Below are positions 1-16,012 of a stretch of DNA of 16,012 nt, piece after piece. A program made the translations under genes and the position numbers. This DNA comes from a virus (taxonomy: Monodnaviria; Loebvirae; Hofneiviricota; Faserviricetes; Tubulavirales; Inoviridae), in IMG/VR virus record IMGVR_UViG_2684623189_000001, one strand, 5' to 3'. Each line of letters starts with the position of its first letter. Within the stretch, counting starts at the first letter, position 1. Under the pieces are notes generated by a model. It was not told the DNA's origin, ran no database searches, and saw only the letters and a list, made by a program, of their open reading frames with translations.

Positions 1-1
1 T

Positions 2-145
2 GACTTTGCCAGAATGATTCCGGCAGCACTGGATAACGTGAAGACTTCATTACCGACAGATTTTCCGGAGAACGTGGTGACGGCAGTTGAAACCAATGTG
101 TTGAGGTTGCACGGTCGGTTAAGCCGAGAATACGGTATTAAGTAA
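2..145 (+). CDS. 3' end of a flanking (probably host) gene, partial; product unknown
   Basis: Frame open from the window edge for 47 codons (…LRLHGRLSREYGIK) to TAA at 143-145. It lies outside the repeated unit. Short, so the open frame is only weakly significant. Confidence 0.3.
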   Translation, partial: DFARMIPAALDNVKTSLPTDFPENVVTAVETNVLRLHGRLSREYGIK

Positions 146-223
146 GATATGGGGTTTTGGTCGTTGTTAATGAGCAGAACAATCATGAACCGCCAACGAC
201 TGGATTCTCCCTTGGTTTATGTT

Positions 224-256
224 GGTGCGCATAATGTACGACTCGTTATGTTGAAA
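224..256 (+). other. dif-like XerC/XerD recombination site at the chromosome-prophage junction (attL-type)
   Basis: GGTGCGCATAA (224-234) matches the XerC-binding arm of the enterobacterial dif site as I recall it, followed by TGTA. After an 11-nt spacer (TGTACGACTCG) comes TTATGTTGAAA (246-256), which resembles the XerD arm TTATGTTAAAT. It sits exactly at the repeat boundary. Confidence 0.6.
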
Positions 257-257
257 A

Positions 258-289
258 GGCCGCTGCGAAAATCGTATCCCGCAGCGGCC
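258..289. terminator. GC-rich hairpin, probable bidirectional rho-independent terminator
   Basis: Perfect 10-bp inverted repeat GGCCGCTGCG / CGCAGCGGCC with a 12-nt loop. On the minus strand it is followed by TTTTCAACAT, downstream of the 159-aa gene; on the plus strand by TCTTT. Confidence 0.55.
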
Positions 290-320
290 TCTTTAGCATA
301 ACGTCATTGTGCGAACCAAT

Positions 321-800
321 TTATATAGAAATGAAAAACTCCTCTTCATTCCTTTTTTTATAATTATCATCCCATATAAGTTTTATTCGGTATTTAGTTT
401 TACTTCCAAAGCTTAGTCCCGCTAAAATTTCAATCCCATGTTGCGGGTGTAATACTTCATATGGAAATTTATCTTCTACATCATGCATGAAAAGATATTC
501 ATTGCCATCGTTATCAGGGAAATGAATTTCTATATTTTTAGCCTCAACTTTCCCTCTATTAAATATCTTGAGTCTATAGTTGTTTTTGGCTATTTTTACG
601 AGGCGGGCACCAAGCTCAGCCTTCATCTCATTAATTGCTGACTTTGTTTCTTTTTCTAGAAGCAACTTACGTAACCTGTCTTGCTCATCCTTTATAACCT
701 TTTGTTCTCTATCACTTTTTCTCGACTTCACTTCTGATGATATGATAGTGTAAATCGATACTACAAGCGCAGCTAAAGCGATGGCATCACTCGTTGTCAT
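321..800 (-). CDS. Hypothetical single-pass membrane protein (N-terminal TM helix, charged helical linker, C-terminal ~90-aa domain); cargo gene
   Basis: 159-aa ORF. N-terminal hydrophobic helix AIALAALVVSIYTIISS, then a K/E/R-rich stretch. Start ATG overlaps the stop of the upstream 91-aa ORF (TAATG); AGGA ribosome-binding site. Markedly AT-rich. No recognisable family. Confidence 0.65.
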   Translation of the reverse strand: MTTSDAIALAALVVSIYTIISSEVKSRKSDREQKVIKDEQDRLRKLLLEKETKSAINEMKAELGARLVKIAKNNYRLKIFNRGKVEAKNIEIHFPDNDGNEYLFMHDVEDKFPYEVLHPQHGIEILAGLSFGSKTKYRIKLIWDDNYKKRNEEEFFISI

Positions 801-1075
801 TATTTAATCCTTATATTTTTACTTCCTTTAAATGCCTTTTTGAGCATATCATTAAACTGTTTTTGAATATCTTTTGTTAACTCTTCTTTTATCTCATCCA
901 CATGGGCGTCAATACTCACCCCGTTTTCTTGGATTAAATCATCATTAGTGAATTCTTTCCCGCAGCCTACACATCTGACGACTTCAGACTCTTCCTCGTG
1001 TTCCATCTCTGTATTTCCGCACACAGGACATAGCAGGGTGATATTTCTATTGTATTTCTCAGGATTTAGTTTCAT
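800..1075 (-). CDS. Hypothetical zinc-ribbon protein (CxxC…CxxC); cargo gene
   Basis: 91-aa ORF with CPVCG …(16 aa)… CVGCG, a C4 zinc-ribbon signature, then an acidic/basic helical tail. AGGAA ribosome-binding site 7 nt upstream. Translationally coupled to the 159-aa ORF. AT-rich. Confidence 0.65.
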   Translation of the reverse strand: MKLNPEKYNRNITLLCPVCGNTEMEHEEESEVVRCVGCGKEFTNDDLIQENGVSIDAHVDEIKEELTKDIQKQFNDMLKKAFKGSKNIRIK

Positions 1076-1103
1076 ATATTTCCTCTCTTCTACGTTTTAT
1101 TGA

Positions 1104-1526
1104 TTACCAGTAATATGAATTTCTTCTGTGCCACCAATAAAGCAGCCCGTATCCGATGATAAGAATTCCGAAAAACATCAACGACATTCCCCAGCCAGTT
1201 CCATACCACGAAACCATATCATCGAAAACCAATCCACCCGTTTCACGTACTCCGGCAGCTTCCTTAAGGATTGGTTTGAATACCGGAATCAGAAGGGCAA
1301 TCGCCAGTGGAGCACCCCAGCGAACAAGACCTGTTTCCATTTTGATCCCGAAAAAGATCCCCGCCCCGACAACAAGCAGCCAGACTATCAGGCCAGGCGC
1401 AGTTTCCAGTGCTGTTTGCCATTCAACATCGAAAGTTTTCATTAGCCAGGCAACAACTGCCAGGCAGAAAGCAAATACGCCGACGACAACCAGTTCAACG
1501 CCGCTTGTTTCGTTGTTTCTACTCAT
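1104..1526 (-). CDS. Hypothetical small integral membrane protein, about 4 TM helices
   Basis: 140-aa ORF with four hydrophobic segments (about aa 10-29, 45-61, 69-83, 113-133) and a W/Y/R-rich C-terminus. AAGGA ribosome-binding site. The opposite-strand ORFs here are low-complexity and implausible. Confidence 0.65.
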   Translation of the reverse strand: MSRNNETSGVELVVVGVFAFCLAVVAWLMKTFDVEWQTALETAPGLIVWLLVVGAGIFFGIKMETGLVRWGAPLAIALLIPVFKPILKEAAGVRETGGLVFDDMVSWYGTGWGMSLMFFGILIIGYGLLYWWHRRNSYYW

Positions 1527-1570
1527 CCTTTTGATCCTTTTTCACTGTTCAAAATTCGCACAATAAAGAA

Positions 1571-1595
1571 CGTGCAGTGTTGGTAATACTGCACG
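1571..1595. terminator. Hairpin between the repressor gene and the cargo genes; putative terminator or attenuator
   Basis: CGTGCAGT / ACTGCACG, 8-bp perfect stem with a 9-nt loop. T-rich on both sides (TTTGTCTCATT on plus, TTCTTTATTG on minus). A second small hairpin GTCTCA-ttcc-TGAGAC lies at 1599-1614. Confidence 0.45.
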
Positions 1596-1625
1596 TTTGT
1601 CTCATTCCTGAGACTGTTAATCCTT

Positions 1626-2072
1626 TTACTCTTCTCCAGACACCGCTTTTTTCATAAACATTTTAGTACTGTAAGTGTATGAACTTAAGGCAGAAACCTG
1701 CCTTGCGAGTGCCAGAATATCTTGTTTTTCCAGTGTCCTGATGTTCCACACGATGAAATTATGTGCGTTAGTGGTTTCTTCATCAGTATATCCATCCGCA
1801 GAAGTGATTAGCTTCCGCTCGGTAGCTTCTTCTTTAACATCAAGAGCATAGCCATAAGCTAAGGTGTTTAAGTCTGCACCCGTAATTTTAGCTATCTGAA
1901 TGATGTCACTGAATTTAGGTTCAGTTTTGCCGGACGCTATCCTGACCAGCGTACTCACGCTAATGCCAGTCTTCTCGGCCAGTTCTTCATAAGTCGAGTG
2001 TTCCAGAATTACCTTTTTGATACGTTCTGCTCTCTGTTTGTCCGCCATAACTTCATGCTCATTGTTGCCCAT
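1626..2072 (-). CDS. XRE/Cro-C1-type helix-turn-helix transcriptional repressor (inovirus lysogeny repressor, RstR-like position)
   Basis: 148 aa. HTH signature YEELAEKTGISVSTLVRIASGKTEP. Divergently transcribed from the Rep gene, the arrangement seen in lysogenic inoviruses. Confidence 0.75.
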   Translation of the reverse strand: MGNNEHEVMADKQRAERIKKVILEHSTYEELAEKTGISVSTLVRIASGKTEPKFSDIIQIAKITGADLNTLAYGYALDVKEEATERKLITSADGYTDEETTNAHNFIVWNIRTLEKQDILALARQVSALSSYTYSTKMFMKKAVSGEE

Positions 2073-2243
2073 CTACTTGGCTCCATCTTAACAGTGGTTT
2101 TTCAATAGTTAGATTTGATGCTCATTTCTGACAATTTAAACATTGCAAATGTATTGACTGTCAGAACTGAGCATATTACATTGTGACCATTCAATCTGCT
2201 CACAAATGACTATTGACACATATTTTGATGGGTGTGACTACTT
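2073..2243. promoter_or_regulatory. Divergent promoter/operator region between repressor and Rep
   Basis: 171-bp AT-rich intergenic region. -35-like hexamers TTGACT (2154-2159) and TTGACA (2213-2218). Inverted repeats TTCTGACA (2126-2133) / TGTCAGAA (2159-2166) and ACATT-GCA-AATGT; recurring TGAC motifs. Confidence 0.5.
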
Positions 2244-3296
2244 ATGATCGACTGGTTTACCGGAATCCTGCCTTGCACACACCGACCGTTACCGGCTGGT
2301 AGTGTCGTCAGCGTCGATGCTGACGGTGCAGTGGAGTGGGAAACAGTAAAACGGTTGACCGTTCGCGGTTCGCATGAGTCCACAATGAAAGTAAGGTCTG
2401 TTGGATCTGATGGTGAAGGTCGGGCAACACATCTCTACATTGACGGTAATCCATCAAAGTTTTTGCAAGGTCACTCTGTTATCGGTTCCGACGATTTGCA
2501 AGGGTTGGTGTTAACAGCTTACGCCAGAATATTGGCATTACTGCATATTCCTCATGATCTACCATCCTATCGGCAGGTCATGGAAGGGCAATTTAAGATC
2601 TCGCGCATCGATATCAATTACATGTATTCATTGTCAACATTAGAAAATGTCCGCGCATGGTTATATGCCGCAGAATTTAAAGCTAAAACTCGCCACGGTC
2701 GCGCCTGTGGTAAAGGTGGCACTGTTTACTTAGGGAAAAACTCCCGTCGTTGGAGCCTGAAATTTTATTCAAAATATGATGAGCATACATCTGGCAAAAA
2801 AGGGCACCAGATGGCAGACGAATTCGTTAAAGCTGGTTTACTGGACTGGTCAAAAGATAAATTACGCATTGAATTAACATTAAGAACAACTGAATTAATT
2901 GATTTGAATCTTACGCTTGGTAATAGCTGGAATATTGAGACGCCCAATAAATTATTCTCTGACTATGTAGGGAGAATAGAAATGAATCAAAATACTATAT
3001 TAACTGATGAAAAAATAATTAATCTCCCAAGAAAAATACAGTCTACATATTTATTGTGGAAGCAGGGCGCGAACATGAAAGAGATGTTACCGAAACCTAC
3101 ATTCTACCGACACCGTAAAGAATTACTTTCTTTCGGAATAGATATTAACTTTTATTGTGAGTCACCGGATTCTAATAACGTTGTTCCGTTGGTTCGTACT
3201 CTTGAAGCCAAACCAGCCAAAATTCCATCATGGGTTTATGAGAAAGGTTTAATTTTCGATTATAACCGTATTTCACATGCCAGTAACTGGCATTAA
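2244..3296 (+). CDS. Rolling-circle replication initiation protein (Rep_trans / pII-like)
   Basis: 350 aa. Motif GTVYLGKNSRRWSLKFYSKYDE fits the Rep_trans-type pattern with catalytic Tyr. First gene of the plus-strand module, as in inoviruses. Confidence 0.75.
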   Translation: MIDWFTGILPCTHRPLPAGSVVSVDADGAVEWETVKRLTVRGSHESTMKVRSVGSDGEGRATHLYIDGNPSKFLQGHSVIGSDDLQGLVLTAYARILALLHIPHDLPSYRQVMEGQFKISRIDINYMYSLSTLENVRAWLYAAEFKAKTRHGRACGKGGTVYLGKNSRRWSLKFYSKYDEHTSGKKGHQMADEFVKAGLLDWSKDKLRIELTLRTTELIDLNLTLGNSWNIETPNKLFSDYVGRIEMNQNTILTDEKIINLPRKIQSTYLLWKQGANMKEMLPKPTFYRHRKELLSFGIDINFYCESPDSNNVVPLVRTLEAKPAKIPSWVYEKGLIFDYNRISHASNWH

Positions 3297-3307
3297 AGGA
3301 GAGTGAT

Positions 3308-3625
3308 ATGTCTAATTATGGTCTTTTTGTAAAAGGTAAAATGCTTGGTGCTCGCCAGCGTAATAAGGTCAATGGTCAGGGATACTATAATGAAATTGGT
3401 GTTGGCTTAGAGATTCCTGATGGTTTTGGCGGCACTAAGCAAGACCAGATTATTATTCGTGTATCTCAGGCTCTTGTTAATGCCGGTGTAATGAATCAGG
3501 CAAATAATTTTATCGGTAAGTTAGTCCAGATACCTGTATATGTTCGCGTCTGGTCAATGGAGGGGAGGGAAGGAGTAACTTATAACATTTCATCAGATGG
3601 CGGCATTACTGAAATAAAAGGCTGA
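3308..3625 (+). CDS. Putative ssDNA-binding protein (pV/RstB-like by position)
   Basis: 105 aa. Strong AAGGAG ribosome-binding site. Immediately downstream of Rep; Gly-rich, beta-type composition. Function is inferred from synteny only. Confidence 0.5.
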   Translation: MSNYGLFVKGKMLGARQRNKVNGQGYYNEIGVGLEIPDGFGGTKQDQIIIRVSQALVNAGVMNQANNFIGKLVQIPVYVRVWSMEGREGVTYNISSDGGITEIKG

Positions 3626-3627
3626 TT

Positions 3628-3879
3628 ATGGATGCATCAGGTTTCGATATTCAGTTTGATAATCATATTCCTGAAAATGGTTACCGTATTGAAGGTTATT
3701 TATGTAATGCGAACAATGCAAAAGAATGTCAGGCAATAATGGTACGTTCTGAACCATTTCATCAAATTGATTATTCTGCAATGGGAAATTACTGGACATT
3801 AGGTTTTGGCTCTGTCCTGCTGCTCTGGCTTTTTTCTGTAGGTGTGGGACAGGTAATAAAGATGGTTCGTACTGCTTGA
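3628..3879 (+). CDS. Hypothetical small protein with C-terminal TM helix (possible minor virion or assembly protein)
   Basis: 83 aa. C-terminal hydrophobic helix WTLGFGSVLLLWLFSVGVG followed by a basic tail. Tightly packed between the ssb-like and coat genes. Confidence 0.4.
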   Translation: MDASGFDIQFDNHIPENGYRIEGYLCNANNAKECQAIMVRSEPFHQIDYSAMGNYWTLGFGSVLLLWLFSVGVGQVIKMVRTA

Positions 3880-3913
3880 ATGCGAACCTTTAAAATGTAA
3901 TGGAGATAGAGTT

Positions 3914-4147
3914 ATGTTTAAAAAAATCGTTAGTTTTCTGGCTGTACCTGCATTAATGGCTGTTTCTGGCGCGACTTTCGCTGCAGAAGGAGCGGCATCA
4001 AGTGGTGTTGATTTATCGCCGCTGACGAACAGCATTGATTTCAGTACAGTTCTGGTTGCGATTATGGCCGTTGCTGCTTCACTGGTAACACTTTATGCCG
4101 GTGTCGCTGGCGTTCGCTGGGTATTGCGTACCGTTAAATCCGCATAA
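3914..4147 (+). CDS. Major coat protein (pVIII-like)
   Basis: 77 aa. Signal peptide MFKKIVSFLAVPALMAVSGATFA with AxA cleavage motif. Mature part has an acidic N-terminus, a hydrophobic core and a basic C-terminus (RWVLRTVKSA). GGAG ribosome-binding site. Confidence 0.85.
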   Translation: MFKKIVSFLAVPALMAVSGATFAAEGAASSGVDLSPLTNSIDFSTVLVAIMAVAASLVTLYAGVAGVRWVLRTVKSA

Positions 4148-4211
4148 ATTCATTATTCATGGGCGATGCAATATCGCCCGTTTTACTTGAGGTTATTATG
4201 GAGATTGAATT

Positions 4212-5924
4212 ATGGAAATTGGGTTCCCTTTTATGGGGGATCGTCTCAGCTTATGTCGTTATTCTTGGGCTAAGAGGCTGACGGTTTATTCCTTTATTTT
4301 TTCCTTTCTCTGGGTTTCCTTTCCCCGATATTCATATTCATTTGTACCAGCAATTGCAGCAGTGGCTGCGCGGGCTGTTATTCCTAAAGTCGTTGGCCGG
4401 GTGCTTGTTCGTCGCTTTGCTGCCAATGATGCGATTTATACGGCATCACAGCTTACAGCAACCCGTGTTTTTGTTGGCCGCGCTGCGGCTAATGCTGCCG
4501 AATACTTGCCTGCTGCCTCATCATACAAAATGAGCGGTGTTGCAACGTGGGCGGGTATTGCTGCTGCTGTATCATCTTTTGTTCCGTCTTCTTTGAGTTC
4601 ATCTGACGGCTCGGTAATGGTAATGACTAACGGTAAAAAGATTTCCGATAATTTATATGAAGTAACGTACAGTGGTCAAAGTGGTGAAAGTAAGACGATA
4701 ACCGTTAATTTTGAACCACAGGAATTAAGTCCGGTAATCCTTCATGTTAGTCGTAATAATGTGGATGCGGGTTCTCCAGTTGTAGGTGTTGAAACAGGAT
4801 ATTCCACGCCAGATAATGCACTTTATTATTATCAGGATTCGAAAGAGCTAATTTATTACTATGGTGATAATCCAACTGAAATTGCCAGAAATTATCTTAA
4901 TGACTATAACTCGCGTACTTATACTGAAACACTAACGAATTTTGAACGCACTGTGACGAATAAAGTTGTCAACAGTAATGGAGATGTATCCTTTACTGAA
5001 CAGAATTATAAGTTTACTTATCCTTCCTCATTTTATGAAATACCTGAGATTACACACTTGTATAGCAACCCGGCCGCATCTTCATTTCCCGCAGGTATTC
5101 CCATGTATGAAAATGTAGCAGGGCTTCCCATGTATTACAGCGTTGCTTATTTAACAGCAGGAAAGCAATATCAGTATCACAACACGCCTTGTAAAACGAC
5201 TAATCAGTCAAATGGTGGATATTCGACGATTTGTGCCGTTCCTGAAAAAGAGGATTACACCGCAAAAGATATTGATGAAAAGAGTGAGCTTACTATCTGG
5301 ACCAATACCAAATATAAAGCCATGACGGAAGTACTGGAGGCTGGAAATATTGAGTCCATGATTGATTATCTGGAGTATCTTGATAGTGTTAGTGTATCGC
5401 CAGCACTTCTTGCCGACATGATTAACGAGCTGTGGTCTGAAGCTGCCGTTAATGCCGATTATAACGGCTTACCGTTTAAAGAGGTTTCACCGGCTGAAGT
5501 AACTTCTGCGATGTCGGAACTTAGGCTATCTCCAACGTTATTAGATATGCTTTCACCTGTATCTGACAGTGCAGGGGCTGACGTCAATATTGATATTACC
5601 ATTAATAACAACTCAGGATCTGACACTGGAAATAATGGCAATATAGATTTGGGAGAAGATCCCGGTGTAAAAGAGCCTGAGCTTGAAGAAACGCCAACGG
5701 CAAGAGATATTTTAACGCCAATTATTAACTTGTTGCCTTTTACAAACGAATTTAACATCGGCTCTCGTTCAGCATCCTGCCCCGTTGTTGAATTCAGCGT
5801 GTTTAATCACCAGTACAGAATTGACTCCCATTGTCCGTTAATTGAGCAGAACAGAAGCGCCGTAGAAACCATATTTCTGATTATATGGGGATTTGTTGCG
5901 CTCCGTATTATTCTGAGTGCCTAA
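4212..5924 (+). CDS. Minor coat / adsorption protein (pIII-like); exact start uncertain
   Basis: 570 aa. Follows the major coat gene. Gly/Ser/Asn-rich linker (NNNSGSDTGNNGNIDLGEDPG) and C-terminal membrane anchor (IFLIIWGFVALRIILSA). N-terminus is atypical; alternative start at Met8 (4233). Confidence 0.65.
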   Translation: MEIGFPFMGDRLSLCRYSWAKRLTVYSFIFSFLWVSFPRYSYSFVPAIAAVAARAVIPKVVGRVLVRRFAANDAIYTASQLTATRVFVGRAAANAAEYLPAASSYKMSGVATWAGIAAAVSSFVPSSLSSSDGSVMVMTNGKKISDNLYEVTYSGQSGESKTITVNFEPQELSPVILHVSRNNVDAGSPVVGVETGYSTPDNALYYYQDSKELIYYYGDNPTEIARNYLNDYNSRTYTETLTNFERTVTNKVVNSNGDVSFTEQNYKFTYPSSFYEIPEITHLYSNPAASSFPAGIPMYENVAGLPMYYSVAYLTAGKQYQYHNTPCKTTNQSNGGYSTICAVPEKEDYTAKDIDEKSELTIWTNTKYKAMTEVLEAGNIESMIDYLEYLDSVSVSPALLADMINELWSEAAVNADYNGLPFKEVSPAEVTSAMSELRLSPTLLDMLSPVSDSAGADVNIDITINNNSGSDTGNNGNIDLGEDPGVKEPELEETPTARDILTPIINLLPFTNEFNIGSRSASCPVVEFSVFNHQYRIDSHCPLIEQNRSAVETIFLIIWGFVALRIILSA

Positions 5925-5936
5925 AGGAGTGCAACT

Positions 5937-6224
5937 ATGTTTGGGATTCTGATTAGTGCATTAAATACTTTGTTAGGTTTTGTATTCCGGTCATTGATTA
6001 TTAAATTCGTCGTATTCTTTGCGCTGTATTTTGTAGTCCAGGGCTTCGTTGAAATCCTTGTTGAGTTACTGCCAGATTCAAGCAATCTCTCATCGCTGTT
6101 TGCCAATTTATCAGACGGATTCTGGTACTTCATTAACCTGAGTAAATTACCACAGGGGATTAGTATGATTATCTCCGCAATGGCTACTCGTTTTATTATT
6201 CGACGTATTCCTGTTATAGGGTGA
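5937..6224 (+). CDS. Minor coat protein (pVI-like)
   Basis: 95 aa, strongly hydrophobic. AAGGAG ribosome-binding site. Lies between the pIII-like and Zot/pI genes, as pVI does in inoviruses. Confidence 0.6.
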   Translation: MFGILISALNTLLGFVFRSLIIKFVVFFALYFVVQGFVEILVELLPDSSNLSSLFANLSDGFWYFINLSKLPQGISMIISAMATRFIIRRIPVIG

Positions 6225-6227
6225 GTT

Positions 6228-7253
6228 ATGGCTATTTCTGCATATATTGGCATACCCGGCTCAGGAAAAAGTTATGAAGCCGTTTGCAATGTCATTATTC
6301 CGGCATTTACCAGCGGCCGGAGAGTTGTGACGAACATTTATGGTTTACAAAAAGATAAAATCACCGAACGTTATCCTGATGCAACGGGAGAAATTATTGT
6401 TGTGGATAATGATGATGTGCTTAAAGCAGATTTCTTTCCTTTTAAAGGTGGGGAAGGGAGCTTTTGCCAGTTTGGTGATTTAATTGTTATTGATGAAGCA
6501 TGGCGAATCTTCGGTAGCGATAAGGATATGACGGCTGAGAAGAAATCATTTATTGCTGAACATCGTCATTTTACGCACCCTGAAACGGGTATTAGCTGTG
6601 ATTTGGTTATTGTAAATCAGTCACTTTCTAATATTGCTCGCTTTCTGAAAGACAAAATAGAAACAACTTACCGGATGCGCAAGCTGAAAGCGTTGGGCCT
6701 GAATAATCATTACTGCATTGACGTATATTCAGGCCACAAAATCTATAAAAGCAACCTCGTCACCAGTTATCGCAATAAATATAACCCTGATATTTTTGAA
6801 CTTTACAAAAGTTATGAAGGAAATAACGGTAATGAAAAGCAGACAGATAAACGCCAGAGCATCTGGAATTCTGGCAAAGTCAGGTTCTTTCTTGTGCTTT
6901 TTCCATTGATGTTTATCGGGTCAGGCTGGCTGATTTACTCATTTTTCAGCACGTTTGGCCGAAGCGATCCCTCGCCAGATTTGACTACAACAGATGTACG
7001 TGATGCGGCCATGTTTCGTTCTTCCGCTGCTACTCCAGCACCAGATACTCCCTCAGAACCAGCTGAACCGCCACTTTCAACCGAGTGGCGTATATCAGGG
7101 AGAATGACCAGTGAAGGCAGGGCGTTTGTGATTCTTGTTAATGGTGCCGGTGTTTTGCGTGCCGTTCCTGCATCCAGTTTTAATTACAAAGGGATGTTGA
7201 TGAGCGGAATTATTGATGGTGAGCGTGTGACGCTTTATACGGGGAAAAAATAA
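6228..7253 (+). CDS. Zot / pI-family morphogenesis (assembly) ATPase
   Basis: 341 aa. Walker A GIPGSGKSY, Walker B LIVIDEAW, single TM segment (VRFFLVLFPLMFIGSGWLIYSFF) followed by a periplasmic C-terminal region. Confidence 0.85.
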   Translation: MAISAYIGIPGSGKSYEAVCNVIIPAFTSGRRVVTNIYGLQKDKITERYPDATGEIIVVDNDDVLKADFFPFKGGEGSFCQFGDLIVIDEAWRIFGSDKDMTAEKKSFIAEHRHFTHPETGISCDLVIVNQSLSNIARFLKDKIETTYRMRKLKALGLNNHYCIDVYSGHKIYKSNLVTSYRNKYNPDIFELYKSYEGNNGNEKQTDKRQSIWNSGKVRFFLVLFPLMFIGSGWLIYSFFSTFGRSDPSPDLTTTDVRDAAMFRSSAATPAPDTPSEPAEPPLSTEWRISGRMTSEGRAFVILVNGAGVLRAVPASSFNYKGMLMSGIIDGERVTLYTGKK

Positions 7254-8497: not shown

Positions 8498-8585
8498 TTG
8501 TATGGATTTTTATTATGGCGTTAACTTTTATGGGGTATGAACAGTACGACATCTTCTAGGTATTCAGTTACTTAGAGGATTTATT

Positions 8586-8834
8586 ATGTCTGTAAAAAAT
8601 AAGGCGCGTGACCGACTTCCCGGTGGCCGCCTTAAGTCTTATCGTCGTGTAGGTTCACATTTTGCCAGTTGTGCCAGATGGTTTGATAAATCGCCGTCCT
8701 GGTATCGCAATATGATGATGACCAGGCCTGAGCGTCGTGAAGTCAGAAGGCTTCTCAATCAGGTAATGCGTGGTCATGATGCTGACGGCATTGCTTTTCC
8801 GGTCAGTCATCGTCCGTTTGTTTATTGGTGGTGA
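8586..8834 (+). CDS. Hypothetical small basic protein
   Basis: 82 aa, Arg/Trp-rich. GAGG ribosome-binding site 8 nt upstream. In the accessory region between secretin and att site. No family recognised. Confidence 0.45.
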   Translation: MSVKNKARDRLPGGRLKSYRRVGSHFASCARWFDKSPSWYRNMMMTRPERREVRRLLNQVMRGHDADGIAFPVSHRPFVYWW

Positions 8835-9018
8835 ATTTCGTACGCACGAAATTTCACGCATAAACACCAGACAAAAAATCGTTAACTGTCTGTTTTGAAA
8901 GATAACGCCGGTCAGTGACAAAACTTGTTTTGTTGCTGTCCGGGGTTGGCCAAGCCGTACAGTTTCCATTTTCAGCGTTATGGCTGATTCGGCGCGGCAG
9001 CATTCATCGGGGCTTATC

Positions 9019-9228
9019 ATGGAAAAATTCATGACACATCAGGAGCTGAAAGTGATGCTTCTTAAAGATCCAGCATTCCGGGCTGCTTATGAAGCTGAGA
9101 GCCAGAACCCGCAATCCGGTTACCAGATTATCCGGCATCATGGTGATGGCACTGAAGAAGTGGTGTTTGATTCTCGTGTATCAGGTACAGATTTACCAAC
9201 TAACTGGATGAACAGGCCTGATTGGTGA
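9019..9228 (+). CDS. Hypothetical small protein (ORF track places the start at 8980; 9019 preferred)
   Basis: About 69 aa from the ATG at 9019, which has a GGGG ribosome-binding site. N-terminal motif ELKVMLLKDPAFRAAYEA. Last gene before the att site. Confidence 0.4.
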   Translation: MEKFMTHQELKVMLLKDPAFRAAYEAESQNPQSGYQIIRHHGDGTEEVVFDSRVSGTDLPTNWMNRPDW

Positions 9229-9368
9229 GGTCAGGCCGTTCACTTACTGCTGACAGACATTTGATTCTGATTCGTTTGGAGAAACGGATGATTTTGAATC
9301 ACTGTCGATAGTAGCCAGTTGACGGCCAGTGTCAACGATTCCCGCCAGATTCTGCCATCCTTACCATT

Positions 9369-9401
9369 GGTGCGCATAATGTACGACTCGTTATGTTGAA
9401 A
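9369..9401 (+). other. dif-like XerC/XerD site at the copy1/copy2 junction (attP-type)
   Basis: Identical to 224-256 but flanked on the left by prophage sequence rather than chromosomal flank. Confidence 0.6.
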
Positions 9402-9402
9402 A

Positions 9403-9434
9403 GGCCGCTGCGAAAATCGTATCCCGCAGCGGCC
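9403..9434. terminator. GC-rich hairpin terminator (copy 2)
   Basis: Identical to 258-289. In the array it also lies downstream of the plus-strand secretin and small-ORF genes of copy 1. Confidence 0.55.
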
Positions 9435-9465
9435 TCTTTAGCATAACGTCATTGTGCGAACCAAT

Positions 9466-9945
9466 TTATATAGAAATGAAAAACTCCTCTTCATTCCTTT
9501 TTTTATAATTATCATCCCATATAAGTTTTATTCGGTATTTAGTTTTACTTCCAAAGCTTAGTCCCGCTAAAATTTCAATCCCATGTTGCGGGTGTAATAC
9601 TTCATATGGAAATTTATCTTCTACATCATGCATGAAAAGATATTCATTGCCATCGTTATCAGGGAAATGAATTTCTATATTTTTAGCCTCAACTTTCCCT
9701 CTATTAAATATCTTGAGTCTATAGTTGTTTTTGGCTATTTTTACGAGGCGGGCACCAAGCTCAGCCTTCATCTCATTAATTGCTGACTTTGTTTCTTTTT
9801 CTAGAAGCAACTTACGTAACCTGTCTTGCTCATCCTTTATAACCTTTTGTTCTCTATCACTTTTTCTCGACTTCACTTCTGATGATATGATAGTGTAAAT
9901 CGATACTACAAGCGCAGCTAAAGCGATGGCATCACTCGTTGTCAT
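9466..9945 (-). CDS. Hypothetical single-pass membrane protein, cargo gene (copy 2)
   Basis: Identical translation to 321-800 at offset +9145. Confidence 0.65.
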   Translation of the reverse strand: MTTSDAIALAALVVSIYTIISSEVKSRKSDREQKVIKDEQDRLRKLLLEKETKSAINEMKAELGARLVKIAKNNYRLKIFNRGKVEAKNIEIHFPDNDGNEYLFMHDVEDKFPYEVLHPQHGIEILAGLSFGSKTKYRIKLIWDDNYKKRNEEEFFISI

Positions 9946-10220
9946 TATTTAATCCTTATATTTTTACTTCCTTTAAATGCCTTTTTGAGCATATCATTAA
10001 ACTGTTTTTGAATATCTTTTGTTAACTCTTCTTTTATCTCATCCACATGGGCGTCAATACTCACCCCGTTTTCTTGGATTAAATCATCATTAGTGAATTC
10101 TTTCCCGCAGCCTACACATCTGACGACTTCAGACTCTTCCTCGTGTTCCATCTCTGTATTTCCGCACACAGGACATAGCAGGGTGATATTTCTATTGTAT
10201 TTCTCAGGATTTAGTTTCAT
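9945..10220 (-). CDS. Hypothetical zinc-ribbon protein, cargo gene (copy 2)
   Basis: Identical translation to 800-1075. Confidence 0.65.
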   Translation of the reverse strand: MKLNPEKYNRNITLLCPVCGNTEMEHEEESEVVRCVGCGKEFTNDDLIQENGVSIDAHVDEIKEELTKDIQKQFNDMLKKAFKGSKNIRIK

Positions 10221-10248
10221 ATATTTCCTCTCTTCTACGTTTTATTGA

Positions 10249-10671
10249 TTACCAGTAATATGAATTTCTTCTGTGCCACCAATAAAGCAGCCCGTATCCG
10301 ATGATAAGAATTCCGAAAAACATCAACGACATTCCCCAGCCAGTTCCATACCACGAAACCATATCATCGAAAACCAATCCACCCGTTTCACGTACTCCGG
10401 CAGCTTCCTTAAGGATTGGTTTGAATACCGGAATCAGAAGGGCAATCGCCAGTGGAGCACCCCAGCGAACAAGACCTGTTTCCATTTTGATCCCGAAAAA
10501 GATCCCCGCCCCGACAACAAGCAGCCAGACTATCAGGCCAGGCGCAGTTTCCAGTGCTGTTTGCCATTCAACATCGAAAGTTTTCATTAGCCAGGCAACA
10601 ACTGCCAGGCAGAAAGCAAATACGCCGACGACAACCAGTTCAACGCCGCTTGTTTCGTTGTTTCTACTCAT
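10249..10671 (-). CDS. Hypothetical 4-TM membrane protein (copy 2)
   Basis: Identical translation to 1104-1526. Confidence 0.65.
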   Translation of the reverse strand: MSRNNETSGVELVVVGVFAFCLAVVAWLMKTFDVEWQTALETAPGLIVWLLVVGAGIFFGIKMETGLVRWGAPLAIALLIPVFKPILKEAAGVRETGGLVFDDMVSWYGTGWGMSLMFFGILIIGYGLLYWWHRRNSYYW

Positions 10672-10715
10672 CCTTTTGATCCTTTTTCACTGTTCAAAAT
10701 TCGCACAATAAAGAA

Positions 10716-10740
10716 CGTGCAGTGTTGGTAATACTGCACG
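10716..10740. terminator. Hairpin between repressor and cargo genes (copy 2)
   Basis: Identical to 1571-1595. Confidence 0.45.
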
Positions 10741-10770
10741 TTTGTCTCATTCCTGAGACTGTTAATCCTT

Positions 10771-11217
10771 TTACTCTTCTCCAGACACCGCTTTTTTCAT
10801 AAACATTTTAGTACTGTAAGTGTATGAACTTAAGGCAGAAACCTGCCTTGCGAGTGCCAGAATATCTTGTTTTTCCAGTGTCCTGATGTTCCACACGATG
10901 AAATTATGTGCGTTAGTGGTTTCTTCATCAGTATATCCATCCGCAGAAGTGATTAGCTTCCGCTCGGTAGCTTCTTCTTTAACATCAAGAGCATAGCCAT
11001 AAGCTAAGGTGTTTAAGTCTGCACCCGTAATTTTAGCTATCTGAATGATGTCACTGAATTTAGGTTCAGTTTTGCCGGACGCTATCCTGACCAGCGTACT
11101 CACGCTAATGCCAGTCTTCTCGGCCAGTTCTTCATAAGTCGAGTGTTCCAGAATTACCTTTTTGATACGTTCTGCTCTCTGTTTGTCCGCCATAACTTCA
11201 TGCTCATTGTTGCCCAT
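10771..11217 (-). CDS. XRE-type HTH repressor (copy 2)
   Basis: Identical translation to 1626-2072. Confidence 0.75.
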   Translation of the reverse strand: MGNNEHEVMADKQRAERIKKVILEHSTYEELAEKTGISVSTLVRIASGKTEPKFSDIIQIAKITGADLNTLAYGYALDVKEEATERKLITSADGYTDEETTNAHNFIVWNIRTLEKQDILALARQVSALSSYTYSTKMFMKKAVSGEE

Positions 11218-11388
11218 CTACTTGGCTCCATCTTAACAGTGGTTTTTCAATAGTTAGATTTGATGCTCATTTCTGACAATTTAAACATTGCAAATGTATT
11301 GACTGTCAGAACTGAGCATATTACATTGTGACCATTCAATCTGCTCACAAATGACTATTGACACATATTTTGATGGGTGTGACTACTT
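11218..11388. promoter_or_regulatory. Divergent promoter/operator region (copy 2)
   Basis: Identical to 2073-2243. Confidence 0.5.
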
Positions 11389-12441
11389 ATGATCGACTGG
11401 TTTACCGGAATCCTGCCTTGCACACACCGACCGTTACCGGCTGGTAGTGTCGTCAGCGTCGATGCTGACGGTGCAGTGGAGTGGGAAACAGTAAAACGGT
11501 TGACCGTTCGCGGTTCGCATGAGTCCACAATGAAAGTAAGGTCTGTTGGATCTGATGGTGAAGGTCGGGCAACACATCTCTACATTGACGGTAATCCATC
11601 AAAGTTTTTGCAAGGTCACTCTGTTATCGGTTCCGACGATTTGCAAGGGTTGGTGTTAACAGCTTACGCCAGAATATTGGCATTACTGCATATTCCTCAT
11701 GATCTACCATCCTATCGGCAGGTCATGGAAGGGCAATTTAAGATCTCGCGCATCGATATCAATTACATGTATTCATTGTCAACATTAGAAAATGTCCGCG
11801 CATGGTTATATGCCGCAGAATTTAAAGCTAAAACTCGCCACGGTCGCGCCTGTGGTAAAGGTGGCACTGTTTACTTAGGGAAAAACTCCCGTCGTTGGAG
11901 CCTGAAATTTTATTCAAAATATGATGAGCATACATCTGGCAAAAAAGGGCACCAGATGGCAGACGAATTCGTTAAAGCTGGTTTACTGGACTGGTCAAAA
12001 GATAAATTACGCATTGAATTAACATTAAGAACAACTGAATTAATTGATTTGAATCTTACGCTTGGTAATAGCTGGAATATTGAGACGCCCAATAAATTAT
12101 TCTCTGACTATGTAGGGAGAATAGAAATGAATCAAAATACTATATTAACTGATGAAAAAATAATTAATCTCCCAAGAAAAATACAGTCTACATATTTATT
12201 GTGGAAGCAGGGCGCGAACATGAAAGAGATGTTACCGAAACCTACATTCTACCGACACCGTAAAGAATTACTTTCTTTCGGAATAGATATTAACTTTTAT
12301 TGTGAGTCACCGGATTCTAATAACGTTGTTCCGTTGGTTCGTACTCTTGAAGCCAAACCAGCCAAAATTCCATCATGGGTTTATGAGAAAGGTTTAATTT
12401 TCGATTATAACCGTATTTCACATGCCAGTAACTGGCATTAA
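11389..12441 (+). CDS. Rolling-circle replication initiation protein (copy 2)
   Basis: Identical translation to 2244-3296. Confidence 0.75.
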   Translation: MIDWFTGILPCTHRPLPAGSVVSVDADGAVEWETVKRLTVRGSHESTMKVRSVGSDGEGRATHLYIDGNPSKFLQGHSVIGSDDLQGLVLTAYARILALLHIPHDLPSYRQVMEGQFKISRIDINYMYSLSTLENVRAWLYAAEFKAKTRHGRACGKGGTVYLGKNSRRWSLKFYSKYDEHTSGKKGHQMADEFVKAGLLDWSKDKLRIELTLRTTELIDLNLTLGNSWNIETPNKLFSDYVGRIEMNQNTILTDEKIINLPRKIQSTYLLWKQGANMKEMLPKPTFYRHRKELLSFGIDINFYCESPDSNNVVPLVRTLEAKPAKIPSWVYEKGLIFDYNRISHASNWH

Positions 12442-12452
12442 AGGAGAGTGAT

Positions 12453-12770
12453 ATGTCTAATTATGGTCTTTTTGTAAAAGGTAAAATGCTTGGTGCTCGC
12501 CAGCGTAATAAGGTCAATGGTCAGGGATACTATAATGAAATTGGTGTTGGCTTAGAGATTCCTGATGGTTTTGGCGGCACTAAGCAAGACCAGATTATTA
12601 TTCGTGTATCTCAGGCTCTTGTTAATGCCGGTGTAATGAATCAGGCAAATAATTTTATCGGTAAGTTAGTCCAGATACCTGTATATGTTCGCGTCTGGTC
12701 AATGGAGGGGAGGGAAGGAGTAACTTATAACATTTCATCAGATGGCGGCATTACTGAAATAAAAGGCTGA
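12453..12770 (+). CDS. Putative ssDNA-binding protein (copy 2)
   Basis: Identical translation to 3308-3625. Confidence 0.5.
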   Translation: MSNYGLFVKGKMLGARQRNKVNGQGYYNEIGVGLEIPDGFGGTKQDQIIIRVSQALVNAGVMNQANNFIGKLVQIPVYVRVWSMEGREGVTYNISSDGGITEIKG

Positions 12771-12772
12771 TT

Positions 12773-13024
12773 ATGGATGCATCAGGTTTCGATATTCAGT
12801 TTGATAATCATATTCCTGAAAATGGTTACCGTATTGAAGGTTATTTATGTAATGCGAACAATGCAAAAGAATGTCAGGCAATAATGGTACGTTCTGAACC
12901 ATTTCATCAAATTGATTATTCTGCAATGGGAAATTACTGGACATTAGGTTTTGGCTCTGTCCTGCTGCTCTGGCTTTTTTCTGTAGGTGTGGGACAGGTA
13001 ATAAAGATGGTTCGTACTGCTTGA
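12773..13024 (+). CDS. Hypothetical small membrane protein (copy 2)
   Basis: Identical translation to 3628-3879. Confidence 0.4.
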   Translation: MDASGFDIQFDNHIPENGYRIEGYLCNANNAKECQAIMVRSEPFHQIDYSAMGNYWTLGFGSVLLLWLFSVGVGQVIKMVRTA

Positions 13025-13058
13025 ATGCGAACCTTTAAAATGTAATGGAGATAGAGTT

Positions 13059-13292
13059 ATGTTTAAAAAAATCGTTAGTTTTCTGGCTGTACCTGCATTA
13101 ATGGCTGTTTCTGGCGCGACTTTCGCTGCAGAAGGAGCGGCATCAAGTGGTGTTGATTTATCGCCGCTGACGAACAGCATTGATTTCAGTACAGTTCTGG
13201 TTGCGATTATGGCCGTTGCTGCTTCACTGGTAACACTTTATGCCGGTGTCGCTGGCGTTCGCTGGGTATTGCGTACCGTTAAATCCGCATAA
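13059..13292 (+). CDS. Major coat protein (copy 2)
   Basis: Identical translation to 3914-4147. Confidence 0.85.
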   Translation: MFKKIVSFLAVPALMAVSGATFAAEGAASSGVDLSPLTNSIDFSTVLVAIMAVAASLVTLYAGVAGVRWVLRTVKSA

Positions 13293-13356
13293 ATTCATTA
13301 TTCATGGGCGATGCAATATCGCCCGTTTTACTTGAGGTTATTATGGAGATTGAATT

Positions 13357-15069
13357 ATGGAAATTGGGTTCCCTTTTATGGGGGATCGTCTCAGCTTATG
13401 TCGTTATTCTTGGGCTAAGAGGCTGACGGTTTATTCCTTTATTTTTTCCTTTCTCTGGGTTTCCTTTCCCCGATATTCATATTCATTTGTACCAGCAATT
13501 GCAGCAGTGGCTGCGCGGGCTGTTATTCCTAAAGTCGTTGGCCGGGTGCTTGTTCGTCGCTTTGCTGCCAATGATGCGATTTATACGGCATCACAGCTTA
13601 CAGCAACCCGTGTTTTTGTTGGCCGCGCTGCGGCTAATGCTGCCGAATACTTGCCTGCTGCCTCATCATACAAAATGAGCGGTGTTGCAACGTGGGCGGG
13701 TATTGCTGCTGCTGTATCATCTTTTGTTCCGTCTTCTTTGAGTTCATCTGACGGCTCGGTAATGGTAATGACTAACGGTAAAAAGATTTCCGATAATTTA
13801 TATGAAGTAACGTACAGTGGTCAAAGTGGTGAAAGTAAGACGATAACCGTTAATTTTGAACCACAGGAATTAAGTCCGGTAATCCTTCATGTTAGTCGTA
13901 ATAATGTGGATGCGGGTTCTCCAGTTGTAGGTGTTGAAACAGGATATTCCACGCCAGATAATGCACTTTATTATTATCAGGATTCGAAAGAGCTAATTTA
14001 TTACTATGGTGATAATCCAACTGAAATTGCCAGAAATTATCTTAATGACTATAACTCGCGTACTTATACTGAAACACTAACGAATTTTGAACGCACTGTG
14101 ACGAATAAAGTTGTCAACAGTAATGGAGATGTATCCTTTACTGAACAGAATTATAAGTTTACTTATCCTTCCTCATTTTATGAAATACCTGAGATTACAC
14201 ACTTGTATAGCAACCCGGCCGCATCTTCATTTCCCGCAGGTATTCCCATGTATGAAAATGTAGCAGGGCTTCCCATGTATTACAGCGTTGCTTATTTAAC
14301 AGCAGGAAAGCAATATCAGTATCACAACACGCCTTGTAAAACGACTAATCAGTCAAATGGTGGATATTCGACGATTTGTGCCGTTCCTGAAAAAGAGGAT
14401 TACACCGCAAAAGATATTGATGAAAAGAGTGAGCTTACTATCTGGACCAATACCAAATATAAAGCCATGACGGAAGTACTGGAGGCTGGAAATATTGAGT
14501 CCATGATTGATTATCTGGAGTATCTTGATAGTGTTAGTGTATCGCCAGCACTTCTTGCCGACATGATTAACGAGCTGTGGTCTGAAGCTGCCGTTAATGC
14601 CGATTATAACGGCTTACCGTTTAAAGAGGTTTCACCGGCTGAAGTAACTTCTGCGATGTCGGAACTTAGGCTATCTCCAACGTTATTAGATATGCTTTCA
14701 CCTGTATCTGACAGTGCAGGGGCTGACGTCAATATTGATATTACCATTAATAACAACTCAGGATCTGACACTGGAAATAATGGCAATATAGATTTGGGAG
14801 AAGATCCCGGTGTAAAAGAGCCTGAGCTTGAAGAAACGCCAACGGCAAGAGATATTTTAACGCCAATTATTAACTTGTTGCCTTTTACAAACGAATTTAA
14901 CATCGGCTCTCGTTCAGCATCCTGCCCCGTTGTTGAATTCAGCGTGTTTAATCACCAGTACAGAATTGACTCCCATTGTCCGTTAATTGAGCAGAACAGA
15001 AGCGCCGTAGAAACCATATTTCTGATTATATGGGGATTTGTTGCGCTCCGTATTATTCTGAGTGCCTAA
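13357..15069 (+). CDS. pIII-like adsorption protein (copy 2)
   Basis: Identical translation to 4212-5924. Confidence 0.65.
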   Translation: MEIGFPFMGDRLSLCRYSWAKRLTVYSFIFSFLWVSFPRYSYSFVPAIAAVAARAVIPKVVGRVLVRRFAANDAIYTASQLTATRVFVGRAAANAAEYLPAASSYKMSGVATWAGIAAAVSSFVPSSLSSSDGSVMVMTNGKKISDNLYEVTYSGQSGESKTITVNFEPQELSPVILHVSRNNVDAGSPVVGVETGYSTPDNALYYYQDSKELIYYYGDNPTEIARNYLNDYNSRTYTETLTNFERTVTNKVVNSNGDVSFTEQNYKFTYPSSFYEIPEITHLYSNPAASSFPAGIPMYENVAGLPMYYSVAYLTAGKQYQYHNTPCKTTNQSNGGYSTICAVPEKEDYTAKDIDEKSELTIWTNTKYKAMTEVLEAGNIESMIDYLEYLDSVSVSPALLADMINELWSEAAVNADYNGLPFKEVSPAEVTSAMSELRLSPTLLDMLSPVSDSAGADVNIDITINNNSGSDTGNNGNIDLGEDPGVKEPELEETPTARDILTPIINLLPFTNEFNIGSRSASCPVVEFSVFNHQYRIDSHCPLIEQNRSAVETIFLIIWGFVALRIILSA

Positions 15070-15081
15070 AGGAGTGCAACT

Positions 15082-15369
15082 ATGTTTGGGATTCTGATTA
15101 GTGCATTAAATACTTTGTTAGGTTTTGTATTCCGGTCATTGATTATTAAATTCGTCGTATTCTTTGCGCTGTATTTTGTAGTCCAGGGCTTCGTTGAAAT
15201 CCTTGTTGAGTTACTGCCAGATTCAAGCAATCTCTCATCGCTGTTTGCCAATTTATCAGACGGATTCTGGTACTTCATTAACCTGAGTAAATTACCACAG
15301 GGGATTAGTATGATTATCTCCGCAATGGCTACTCGTTTTATTATTCGACGTATTCCTGTTATAGGGTGA
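15082..15369 (+). CDS. pVI-like minor coat protein (copy 2)
   Basis: Identical translation to 5937-6224. Confidence 0.6.
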   Translation: MFGILISALNTLLGFVFRSLIIKFVVFFALYFVVQGFVEILVELLPDSSNLSSLFANLSDGFWYFINLSKLPQGISMIISAMATRFIIRRIPVIG

Positions 15370-15372
15370 GTT

Positions 15373-16012
15373 ATGGCTATTTCTGCATATATTGGCATAC
15401 CCGGCTCAGGAAAAAGTTATGAAGCCGTTTGCAATGTCATTATTCCGGCATTTACCAGCGGCCGGAGAGTTGTGACGAACATTTATGGTTTACAAAAAGA
15501 TAAAATCACCGAACGTTATCCTGATGCAACGGGAGAAATTATTGTTGTGGATAATGATGATGTGCTTAAAGCAGATTTCTTTCCTTTTAAAGGTGGGGAA
15601 GGGAGCTTTTGCCAGTTTGGTGATTTAATTGTTATTGATGAAGCATGGCGAATCTTCGGTAGCGATAAGGATATGACGGCTGAGAAGAAATCATTTATTG
15701 CTGAACATCGTCATTTTACGCACCCTGAAACGGGTATTAGCTGTGATTTGGTTATTGTAAATCAGTCACTTTCTAATATTGCTCGCTTTCTGAAAGACAA
15801 AATAGAAACAACTTACCGGATGCGCAAGCTGAAAGCGTTGGGCCTGAATAATCATTACTGCATTGACGTATATTCAGGCCACAAAATCTATAAAAGCAAC
15901 CTCGTCACCAGTTATCGCAATAAATATAACCCTGATATTTTTGAACTTTACAAAAGTTATGAAGGAAATAACGGTAATGAAAAGCAGACAGATAAACGCC
16001 AGAGCATCTGGA
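15373..16012 (+). CDS. Zot/pI-family assembly ATPase, 5' portion (copy 2, truncated by window end)
   Basis: Starts at 6228+9145 with the same sequence, including the Walker A motif. No stop before the window ends. Confidence 0.8.
   Translation, partial: MAISAYIGIPGSGKSYEAVCNVIIPAFTSGRRVVTNIYGLQKDKITERYPDATGEIIVVDNDDVLKADFFPFKGGEGSFCQFGDLIVIDEAWRIFGSDKDMTAEKKSFIAEHRHFTHPETGISCDLVIVNQSLSNIARFLKDKIETTYRMRKLKALGLNNHYCIDVYSGHKIYKSNLVTSYRNKYNPDIFELYKSYEGNNGNEKQTDKRQSIW

Follow-up and report, generated by a model that had tools for sequence, protein, structure and literature searches.

Gene content and repeat structure of the locus

We analyzed a 16,012-nucleotide stretch of DNA (IMG/VR record IMGVR_UViG_2684623189_000001; referred to as the window in the following), which leads from the 3′ end of the chromosomal gene hipA into a filamentous prophage of the Inoviridae (Table 1). 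The prophage carries the Inoviridae core set in conserved order. The domains Phage_CRI and G2P_X_C of pII, Putative_G5P, DUF2523, Zot, and Secretin were all found above the Pfam cut-off, and Inovirus coat B was found below threshold. This agrees with an earlier reading of the DNA letters (the original prediction), which had proposed a filamentous prophage in tandem copies. Taken together, the data presented below indicate, with a probability of about 0.85, that the window shows a true tandem array, with an inovirus of the CUS-1/YpfΦ family present two or more times at the dif site of Escherichia coli beside hipA.

A direct offset comparison of the window with itself revealed a period of 9,145 bp. 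Positions 222-6867 are identical to 9367-16012, without a single mismatch in 6,646 nt, exactly as had been predicted. At this offset, 166 mismatches were counted over all 6,867 comparable positions, and every one of them lies inside 1-221. The next-best period reached an identity of 0.32, and since no other period exceeds background, chance can be ruled out as the source of the repeat. The list of open reading frames (ORFs) repeats in step with the period. Thus, a full unit (222-9366) is followed head to tail by 73% of another one, which breaks off within the pI/Zot gene where the window ends. The boundaries originally given, 221/222 and 9366/9367, are right as repeat coordinates but do not mark the probable point of recombination. 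Positions 222-234 (13 nt), which consist of TT and the XerC arm GGTGCGCATAA, are present in both the chromosomal dif and the phage attP. Strand exchange has therefore most likely taken place at 234/235 and 9379/9380.

Table 1. Features of the window, their coordinates, and the basis of their assignment
Feature	Position	Strand	Basis and remarks
hipA 3′ end (toxin of hipBA), chromosomal left flank	1-145	+	Annotated as hipA in the 99.7%-identical region of FDAARGOS_1303
attL hybrid, site 1	224-256	+	XerC arm GGTGCGCATAA (224-234); central region TGTACGACTCG (235-245, 11 nt); XerD-like arm TTATGTTGAAA (246-256)
GC-rich stem-loop between the dif-like sites	258-289	+	GGCCGCTGCG - 12 nt - CGCAGCGGCC
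Inverted dif-like site 2	291-317	-	Minus strand GGTTCGCACAA TGACG TTATGCTAAAG; inverted repeats, pairs with site 1 in single-stranded DNA
Cargo ORF, 159 aa	321-800	-	phrog_6723; varies between isolates, other genes in UTI89 CUS-1 and YpfΦ
Cargo ORF, 91 aa, zinc-ribbon protein	800-1075	-	Annotated as ECs_2282 family, putative zinc-binding; Pfam/PADLOC zinc-ribbon matches sub-threshold only
Predicted membrane protein, 140 aa	1104-1526	-	phrog_4174; also in UTI89 CUS-1, not in YpfΦ
Candidate pII (+)-strand origin	1568-1608	+	Hairpin ACGTGCAGT-GTTGGTAAT-ACTGCACGT, then second small hairpin GTCTCAttccTGAGAC
HTH_3/CI-type repressor, RstR analogue	1626-2072	-	Pfam HTH_3, 1.6e-9
pII rolling-circle replication initiator	2244-3296	+	Phage_CRI 1e-73, G2P_X_C 4e-34
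pV single-stranded DNA-binding protein	3308-3625	+	Putative_G5P 1e-52
Small membrane protein, 83 aa, pVII/pIX position	3628-3879	+	phrog_3679; 'membrane protein' in relatives; putative role, from position
pVIII major coat protein	3914-4147	+	Phage_Coat_B sub-threshold; phrog_2186 virion structural protein, 4e-29
pIII-like attachment protein, 520 aa (puvA of CUS-1)	4362-5924	+	Position (between pVIII and DUF2523), size, phrog_3942
pVI-like minor coat protein	5937-6224	+	DUF2523 (Pfam)
pI/Zot assembly ATPase	6228-7253	+	Zot 2e-26
pIV secretin	7253-8497	+	Secretin 1e-24
Two small right-end ORFs, 82 aa and 65 aa	8586-8834; 9031-9228	+	Conserved in CUS-1 and YpfΦ
Copy-copy junction, reconstituted attP (site 1, stem-loop, inverted site 2)	9369-9462	+	Identical to 224-317
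Second prophage copy, partial	9367-16012	+	Base-identical to 222-6867; holds second candidate origin, 10713-10753

For several of these genes, counterparts have been described in the literature. YPO2273 of YpfΦ is the positional equivalent of rstR, puvA encodes the virion receptor-binding protein, and both YpfΦ and CUS-1 carry two attR-adjacent ORFs without assigned function (PMC4266046). The reading frame of the pIII-like protein is open from an ATG at 4212 (570 aa); relatives in RefSeq start at 4362 (520 aa).

Insertion at the dif site

The left flank is 100% identical in strains Nissle 1917 and ATCC 11775. From position 224 on, the XerC arm of E. coli dif, GGTGCGCATAA, is followed by TGTACGACTCG TTATGTTGAAA, where dif has TGTATA TTATGTTAAAT. 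The same sequence recurs at the junction at 9369, where phage DNA (...CCTTACCATT) stands in front of it. The right end of the array falls beyond the window; the terminal dif was read in finished relatives. In the finished genome of FDAARGOS_1303, whose phage is 99.7% identical, three tandem copies lie between hipA and the next chromosomal gene, and the last copy ends ...CCTTACCATT GGTGCGCATAATGTATATTATGTTAAAT, that is, in a perfect 28-bp dif. attL and the copy-copy junctions have an 11-nt central region, and one intact dif is left at the end of the array in these relatives.

We also reconstructed a synthetic empty site by joining the left flank of the window, up to and including the XerC arm, to the remainder of dif and the right flank. 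This sequence was found with 100% identity and coverage in phage-free strains, e.g., Nissle 1917 and ATCC 11775, and at least 80% of it was covered in 877 genomes. Given the perfect dif at the end of the array and the match of the empty site to phage-free strains, the insertion is base-precise at dif. The predicted integration at this site is thus confirmed by the hipA flank, the terminal dif of a finished relative, and the uninterrupted locus of phage-free strains.

Architecture of the attachment site

Two dif-like sites enclose a GC-rich stem-loop at attL and again at the copy-copy junction (Table 1). Site 2 starts 34 nt past site 1 and has the opposite orientation. The + strand of attP folds into a forked hairpin of -31.2 kcal/mol (z = -7.7), and none of 200 shuffled sequences was as stable. 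In the folded + strand, the XerC arms are paired with each other, as are the XerD arms, and the central region is bulged. The central bases read TGTAcgactcg in attP and TGTAta in dif, so that the first four are identical and provide a pairing potential on the XerC side. The coding (+) strand of the phage is colinear with the top strand of dif at every locus examined, which fits the prediction of + strand integration. Neither Pfam nor PHROG revealed an integrase, recombinase, or transposase domain in any ORF of the unit of at least 65 aa.

This arrangement was compared to CTXφ of Vibrio cholerae, a phage reportedly studied by Val et al. in 2005 and by Davis and Waldor in 2000. As in CTXφ, the two inverted dif-like sites of our phage would form an attP(+) in single-stranded DNA and regenerate one functional dif, and both phages occur in tandem arrays. 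They also share the order attP, origin, leftward repressor, and rightward rep and structural genes. The likeness is one of architecture; a relationship in sequence was neither sought nor found. The spacer between the sites is about 34 nt with one short stem-loop in the phage studied here and about 90 nt in CTXφ, and the central regions are 11 and 5 nt compared to 12 and 7 nt. In addition, the phage in the window encodes its own secretin and carries its cargo between attP and the origin, whereas ctxAB of CTXφ is located at the right end. In CTXφ, attP1 (11 + 12 + 11 nt) and the inverted attP2 (11 + 7 + 11 nt) form a forked hairpin in (+) single-stranded DNA (PMC3089051). CUS-1Φ and YpfΦ have been classified as CTX-type, with a single-stranded attP(+), irreversible integration, and phage production via rolling-circle replication (PMC3089051, PMC4246890). 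The attP of the element in the window has the CTXφ-type attP(+) architecture.

Relationship to CUS-1, YpfΦ, and other inoviruses

Judged from the sequence, the unit belongs to the CUS-1/YpfΦ lineage. CUS-1 (CUSφ) was reportedly described by Gonzalez et al. in 2002 as a filamentous prophage of E. coli O18:K1:H7. The prophage of UTI89 (O18:K1:H7, CUS-1 lineage) is 99.5% identical to window positions 1103-9366 over 8,264 nt. It occupies the same hipA-dif insertion site, and its attP hairpin is 99% identical over 98 nt. The repressor, pV, pVIII, the DUF2523 protein, the secretin, and the two right-end ORFs even have identical protein accessions. Two differences were noted: in place of window 320-1102 with its two ORFs (159 aa and 91 aa), UTI89 has a 1.2-kb segment containing a single ORF of 369 aa, and the UTI89 record has a single copy, whereas the window has a tandem.

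A scan of species-representative genomes identified pII with 100% amino acid identity in Yersinia pestis NCTC5923, where window 1546-9366 is 99.7% identical over 7,822 nt. This phage, YpfΦ, also forms a tandem, which repeats every 8,742 bp and has the same sequence at its junction. It is said to have been investigated by Derbise et al. in 2007 and Chouikha et al. in 2010. In the published description, YpfΦ has a length of 8.7 kb, shares 7.1 kb with CUS-1 at 99% identity, and varies in its attL-adjacent ORFs; it forms two to four tandem copies at dif, and its inverted XerC/XerD sites were proposed to act as in CTXφ (PMC4266046). The tandem array at dif with an identical junction, the published copy number, and the proposed CTX-like, XerC-dependent integration of single-stranded DNA all agree with the locus studied here. 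YpfΦ differs in the length of its unit (8,742 compared to 9,145 bp), in the whole attP-to-origin cargo (window 322-1545), and in its Yersinia host. The divergence of our unit is confined to 320-1102 relative to CUS-1 and to 322-1545 relative to YpfΦ, which matches the published description of the lineage (PMC4266046).

The relationship to the Lineavirus I2-2, IKe, and the UPΦ phages, which are dif-integrated tandem prophages of Enterobacterales (Virus Evol 2020, PMC7307601), is more limited. Here, pII and pV are related (pII identity 58% for I2-2 and 86% for a UPΦ-like locus, L008), and an origin-like 41-mer is held in common. The repressor, pVIII, pIII, pVI, pI, and pIV are unrelated at this level of comparison. 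A megablast search of INPHARED with the unit gave no match, this collection evidently being without CUS-1 and YpfΦ, and a protein search returned only I2-2 (58%) and a distant Dulem virus.

A candidate pII origin

Between the gene for the 140-aa membrane protein and the repressor gene lies a hairpin with a perfect stem of 9 bp and a loop of 9 nt; a second, small hairpin follows. The 41 nt of this element match an intergenic segment of phage I2-2 with 90% identity (E = 6e-10), and every relative fetched (Yersinia, Klebsiella, Brenneria, and the UPΦ-like locus) has retained the element in the corresponding place. The second hairpin (1593-1608) is changed on both sides in the loci L007 and L008, from GTCTCA/TGAGAC to GTACCA/TGGTAC (GTCTCAttccTGAGAC to GTACCAttcgTGGTAC). 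Such compensatory changes argue for a conserved structure, e.g., a pII-binding element or a terminator of the repressor gene. We infer that the element at 1568-1608 is the (+) origin used by pII. Neither the Ff nick-site motif CTTTAATAGTGG nor its sub-motifs were found in the window.

Each copy contains one such element to the left of the repressor gene, i.e., beyond it on the attP side, and this position matches ig-1 of CTXφ. A full origin-to-origin interval (1568 to 10753) is included in the window. Under the CTXφ model, it would yield one circular (+) strand with a reconstituted attP.

Prevalence of arrays and other occurrences

We next consider how common such arrays are. Among 5,426 complete E. 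coli genomes, 104 contain the secretin gene; they have it at 183 places in total, with two per genome in the median and five at most. An identical 500-nt junction occurs in nine or more independent complete genomes. In many further genomes, the match extends across the attP hairpin and stops where a different cargo begins; these are tandem junctions of cargo variants. The statement that arrays are well known for dif-integrating inoviruses is thus well founded, both for YpfΦ with its two to four copies (PMC4266046) and for the 104 complete E. coli genomes with their median of two.

E. coli TUM14759 combines a three-copy chromosomal array with a free circle of 9,565 bp (NZ_CP128883.1), the joint of which is the copy-copy junction. 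This circle is probably the replicative form. Its record, labeled 'untypable plasmid', contains the entire genome of a member of this phage family, again with a different cargo. TUM14759 was also considered as a natural test of an array-derived replicative form, but was discarded because its array is riddled with frameshifts and the source copies of the circle are not assignable.

Related sequences were also observed outside the E. coli chromosome. An IncFIB/IncHI1B plasmid of Klebsiella pneumoniae (NZ_CP132684.1, 2.7-21.8 kb) carries a tandem doublet with the same core and a different three-ORF cargo. The doublet ends at a plasmid-borne dif-like site, GGTGCGCATAA TGTACG TTATGTTAAAT, the center of which equals the first six central bases of attP. 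Hence, the phage targets dif-like sites of plasmids too and forms arrays there. In Klebsiella spallanzanii, a decayed or rearranged array was found at dif. It comprises one partial copy (pII to mid-pIII), a second, shorter partial copy, and after these no more than the right end, which is followed by a perfect dif; a run of N lies near the origin. This locus shows that arrays can erode in place.

A copy of about 72 bp of the attP stem-loop and site 2, with about 93% identity, is present on about 400 mostly conjugative enterobacterial plasmids (438 records, 348 of them from Escherichia). It corresponds to window 9392-9463 (= 247-318). In one example (locus L012, 2990-3071), it adjoins the 3′ end of a leftward gene of the STM4504/CBY_0614 family, and there is no site 1 opposite. 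The plasmid copy may have been left behind by a cargo module next to an inovirus attP, or it may be a terminator or Xer-like element put to new use.

Variable cargo between attP and the origin

Compared to FDAARGOS_1303, the closest complete genome, each copy differs by 25 single-nucleotide polymorphisms. All of them are located in 366-1515 (about 2% divergence) and none in the other 7.9 kb or so. Since every difference falls into the cargo region, the cargo has a history different from that of the core. In other isolates, the attL-proximal slot is occupied by the 369-aa ORF (UTI89) or by DUF6953, SIR2-family, or PD-(D/E)XK-nuclease genes. SIR2-family and PD-(D/E)XK-nuclease domains are typical of anti-phage defense. 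For the cargo and small ORFs of the window, PADLOC gave only weak matches of the zinc-ribbon type, none of them significant for any defense system, and a Pfam search of the cargo ORFs gave none above the cut-off.

The UPΦ-like locus L008, which has an E. coli hipA-dif flank, carries window 222-1627, i.e., the attP-to-origin cargo module, at 95% nucleotide identity. Its repressor and structural genes differ from those of the phage in the window and are I2-2-like, of the UPΦ type (PMC7307601). The parts common to the window phage, YpfΦ, and L008 are only attP (222-321) and the origin segment (1546-1627). L008 stems from a contig of a 'Candidatus Nanosynbacter' metagenome-assembled genome, and a contig assigned to an 'Aerococcus' genome of the same kind (L006) likewise carries enterobacterial inovirus prophage DNA. 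Both taxon labels are almost certainly due to binning contamination.

We tentatively suggest that the attP-to-origin segment (about 235-1600) is a cassette exchanged between unrelated lineages of dif inoviruses by way of tandem arrays, although we regard this as a doubtful rather than an established explanation. Rolling-circle replication would start in an upstream CUS-1-type copy and stop at the origin of a different prophage downstream, so that the packaged hybrid would carry the downstream cargo. The phage in the window would then combine a CUS-1/YpfΦ core with a cargo otherwise located on an I2-2-like (UPΦ-type) prophage, and the attP-plus-cargo boundary fragments on the conjugative plasmids would be fossils of such traffic. 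The mosaic pattern is what the hybrid-genome mechanism of Davis and Waldor would be expected to give from heterologous arrays.

Proposed formation of the array and phage production

The features described above suggest the following course of events. Lacking an integrase of its own, the packaged (+) strand would fold the two inverted sites into the forked hairpin, which would mimic a dif duplex with an unpaired central region. The host recombinases XerC/XerD would swap one strand pair after GGTGCGCATAA, and replication would resolve the intermediate. Next to hipA, this would leave a hybrid site that no longer functions; the opposite end would have an intact dif, which could take the next copy. 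Repeated integration would thus give head-to-tail copies with attP as their junction; recombination with the replicative form could yield the same array. The hairpin would be masked in duplex DNA, and Xer would therefore be unable to excise the prophage. For phage production, pII would nick the candidate origin of one copy, and the strand would be displaced through the junction up to the origin of the next one.

XerC-only catalysis, irreversibility, and the dependence of rolling-circle production on the array would be expected from the work on CTXφ and YpfΦ. Production by rolling-circle replication from adjacent copies is a property of CTXφ that may be extended to this phage by analogy. The original prediction had argued that an array can generate replicative-form DNA by rolling-circle replication, which a single copy often cannot. 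The need for an array holds for CTXφ-type phages and would apply here in view of the CTXφ-type double inverted attP (PMC4246890, PMC3089051).

A number of observations weigh against this picture. The - strand of attP folds nearly as stably as the + strand (-29.1 kcal/mol), and the fold energy alone therefore fails to pick the + strand; this choice would rest on the orientation of the prophage relative to dif and on the precedent of CTXφ. The origin was assigned by its similarity to a stretch of the I2-2 intergenic region that carries no annotation. About half of the finished genomes listed are single-copy, so arrays are not obligatory for maintenance, and some of these genomes may be older, collapsed assemblies. 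The circle of TUM14759 could be a by-product of the assembler. The chromosomal array of this strain is full of frameshift errors, which indicates polishing errors in the repeat. The copy number of our source strain is derived from the assembled sequence alone. Finally, superinfecting YpfΦ reportedly inserts between resident copies and not at the regenerated dif (PMC4266046), which suggests that homologous recombination also builds arrays.

The array could accordingly have been made or kept by homologous recombination, either through unequal sister-chromatid exchange or through RecA-mediated insertion of a replicative form, in which case the copies would be identical because they were amplified recently. 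The junction equals attP in any case, so that the sequence cannot tell the two routes apart. Besides the landing of YpfΦ between resident copies, its copy number fluctuates in populations (PMC4266046), and across finished genomes we found one to five copies. However, the perfect dif regenerated at the end of the array stays a competent target, successive multiple integrations have been documented for CTXφ, and EndoIII raises the tandem copy number (PMC4266046). We consider a purely recombinational origin unlikely. Homologous recombination and Xer integration are not mutually exclusive.

Integration of the VGJφ type would involve a single double-stranded attP, reversible integration, and excision by Xer, and the array would have no special role in phage production. 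In site 1, the XerC arm does match that of dif perfectly and the XerD arm is good, and this type is common among dif-integrating inoviruses (PMC4246890). But central regions of 11 nt (site 1) and 5 nt (site 2), compared to 6 nt in dif, are incompatible with a duplex Xer reaction. Moreover, the phage has two sites in inverted orientation that base-pair with one another, and reviews place YpfΦ and CUS-1Φ in the CTX class (PMC3089051, PMC4246890). The duplex-attP model was rejected on the central-region lengths and the two inverted sites, and we regard it as very improbable.

An assembly or circular-permutation artefact, in which an assembler concatenated one integrated copy, perhaps together with a free replicative form, would explain the perfect identity of the copies and could draw on the free circular form in at least one assembly, but is hardly credible given that the first copy is joined to chromosomal hipA, that an identical junction is seen in at least nine independent complete genomes that carry this cargo, in many others whose cargo differs, in Y. 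pestis, and on a Klebsiella plasmid, that finished genomes have a median of two copies, and that short-read assemblers collapse such repeats rather than expand them.

Implications

Tandem arrays at dif, a CTX-like attP, and the rolling-circle rationale are already known for this lineage. The phenomenon was described between 2000 and 2014, and the exact array is already contained in public complete genomes. Arrays are the usual state of this phage, and the array in the window is real but ordinary. For annotation, the locus should be labeled as a CUS-1/YpfΦ-family array (CTXφ-type, Xer-dependent) at dif, with attP, the junctions, and the probable origin marked. This phage family has been linked to modest effects on fitness and virulence in extraintestinal pathogenic E. 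coli and Y. pestis (PMC4266046). The copy number would be biologically relevant, because the state of the array would determine virion production. Only the proposal that attP and the origin delimit the variable cargo is mildly new. If true, this would extend the hybrid-genome mechanism of CTXφ to the shuffling of cargo among enterobacterial inoviruses.

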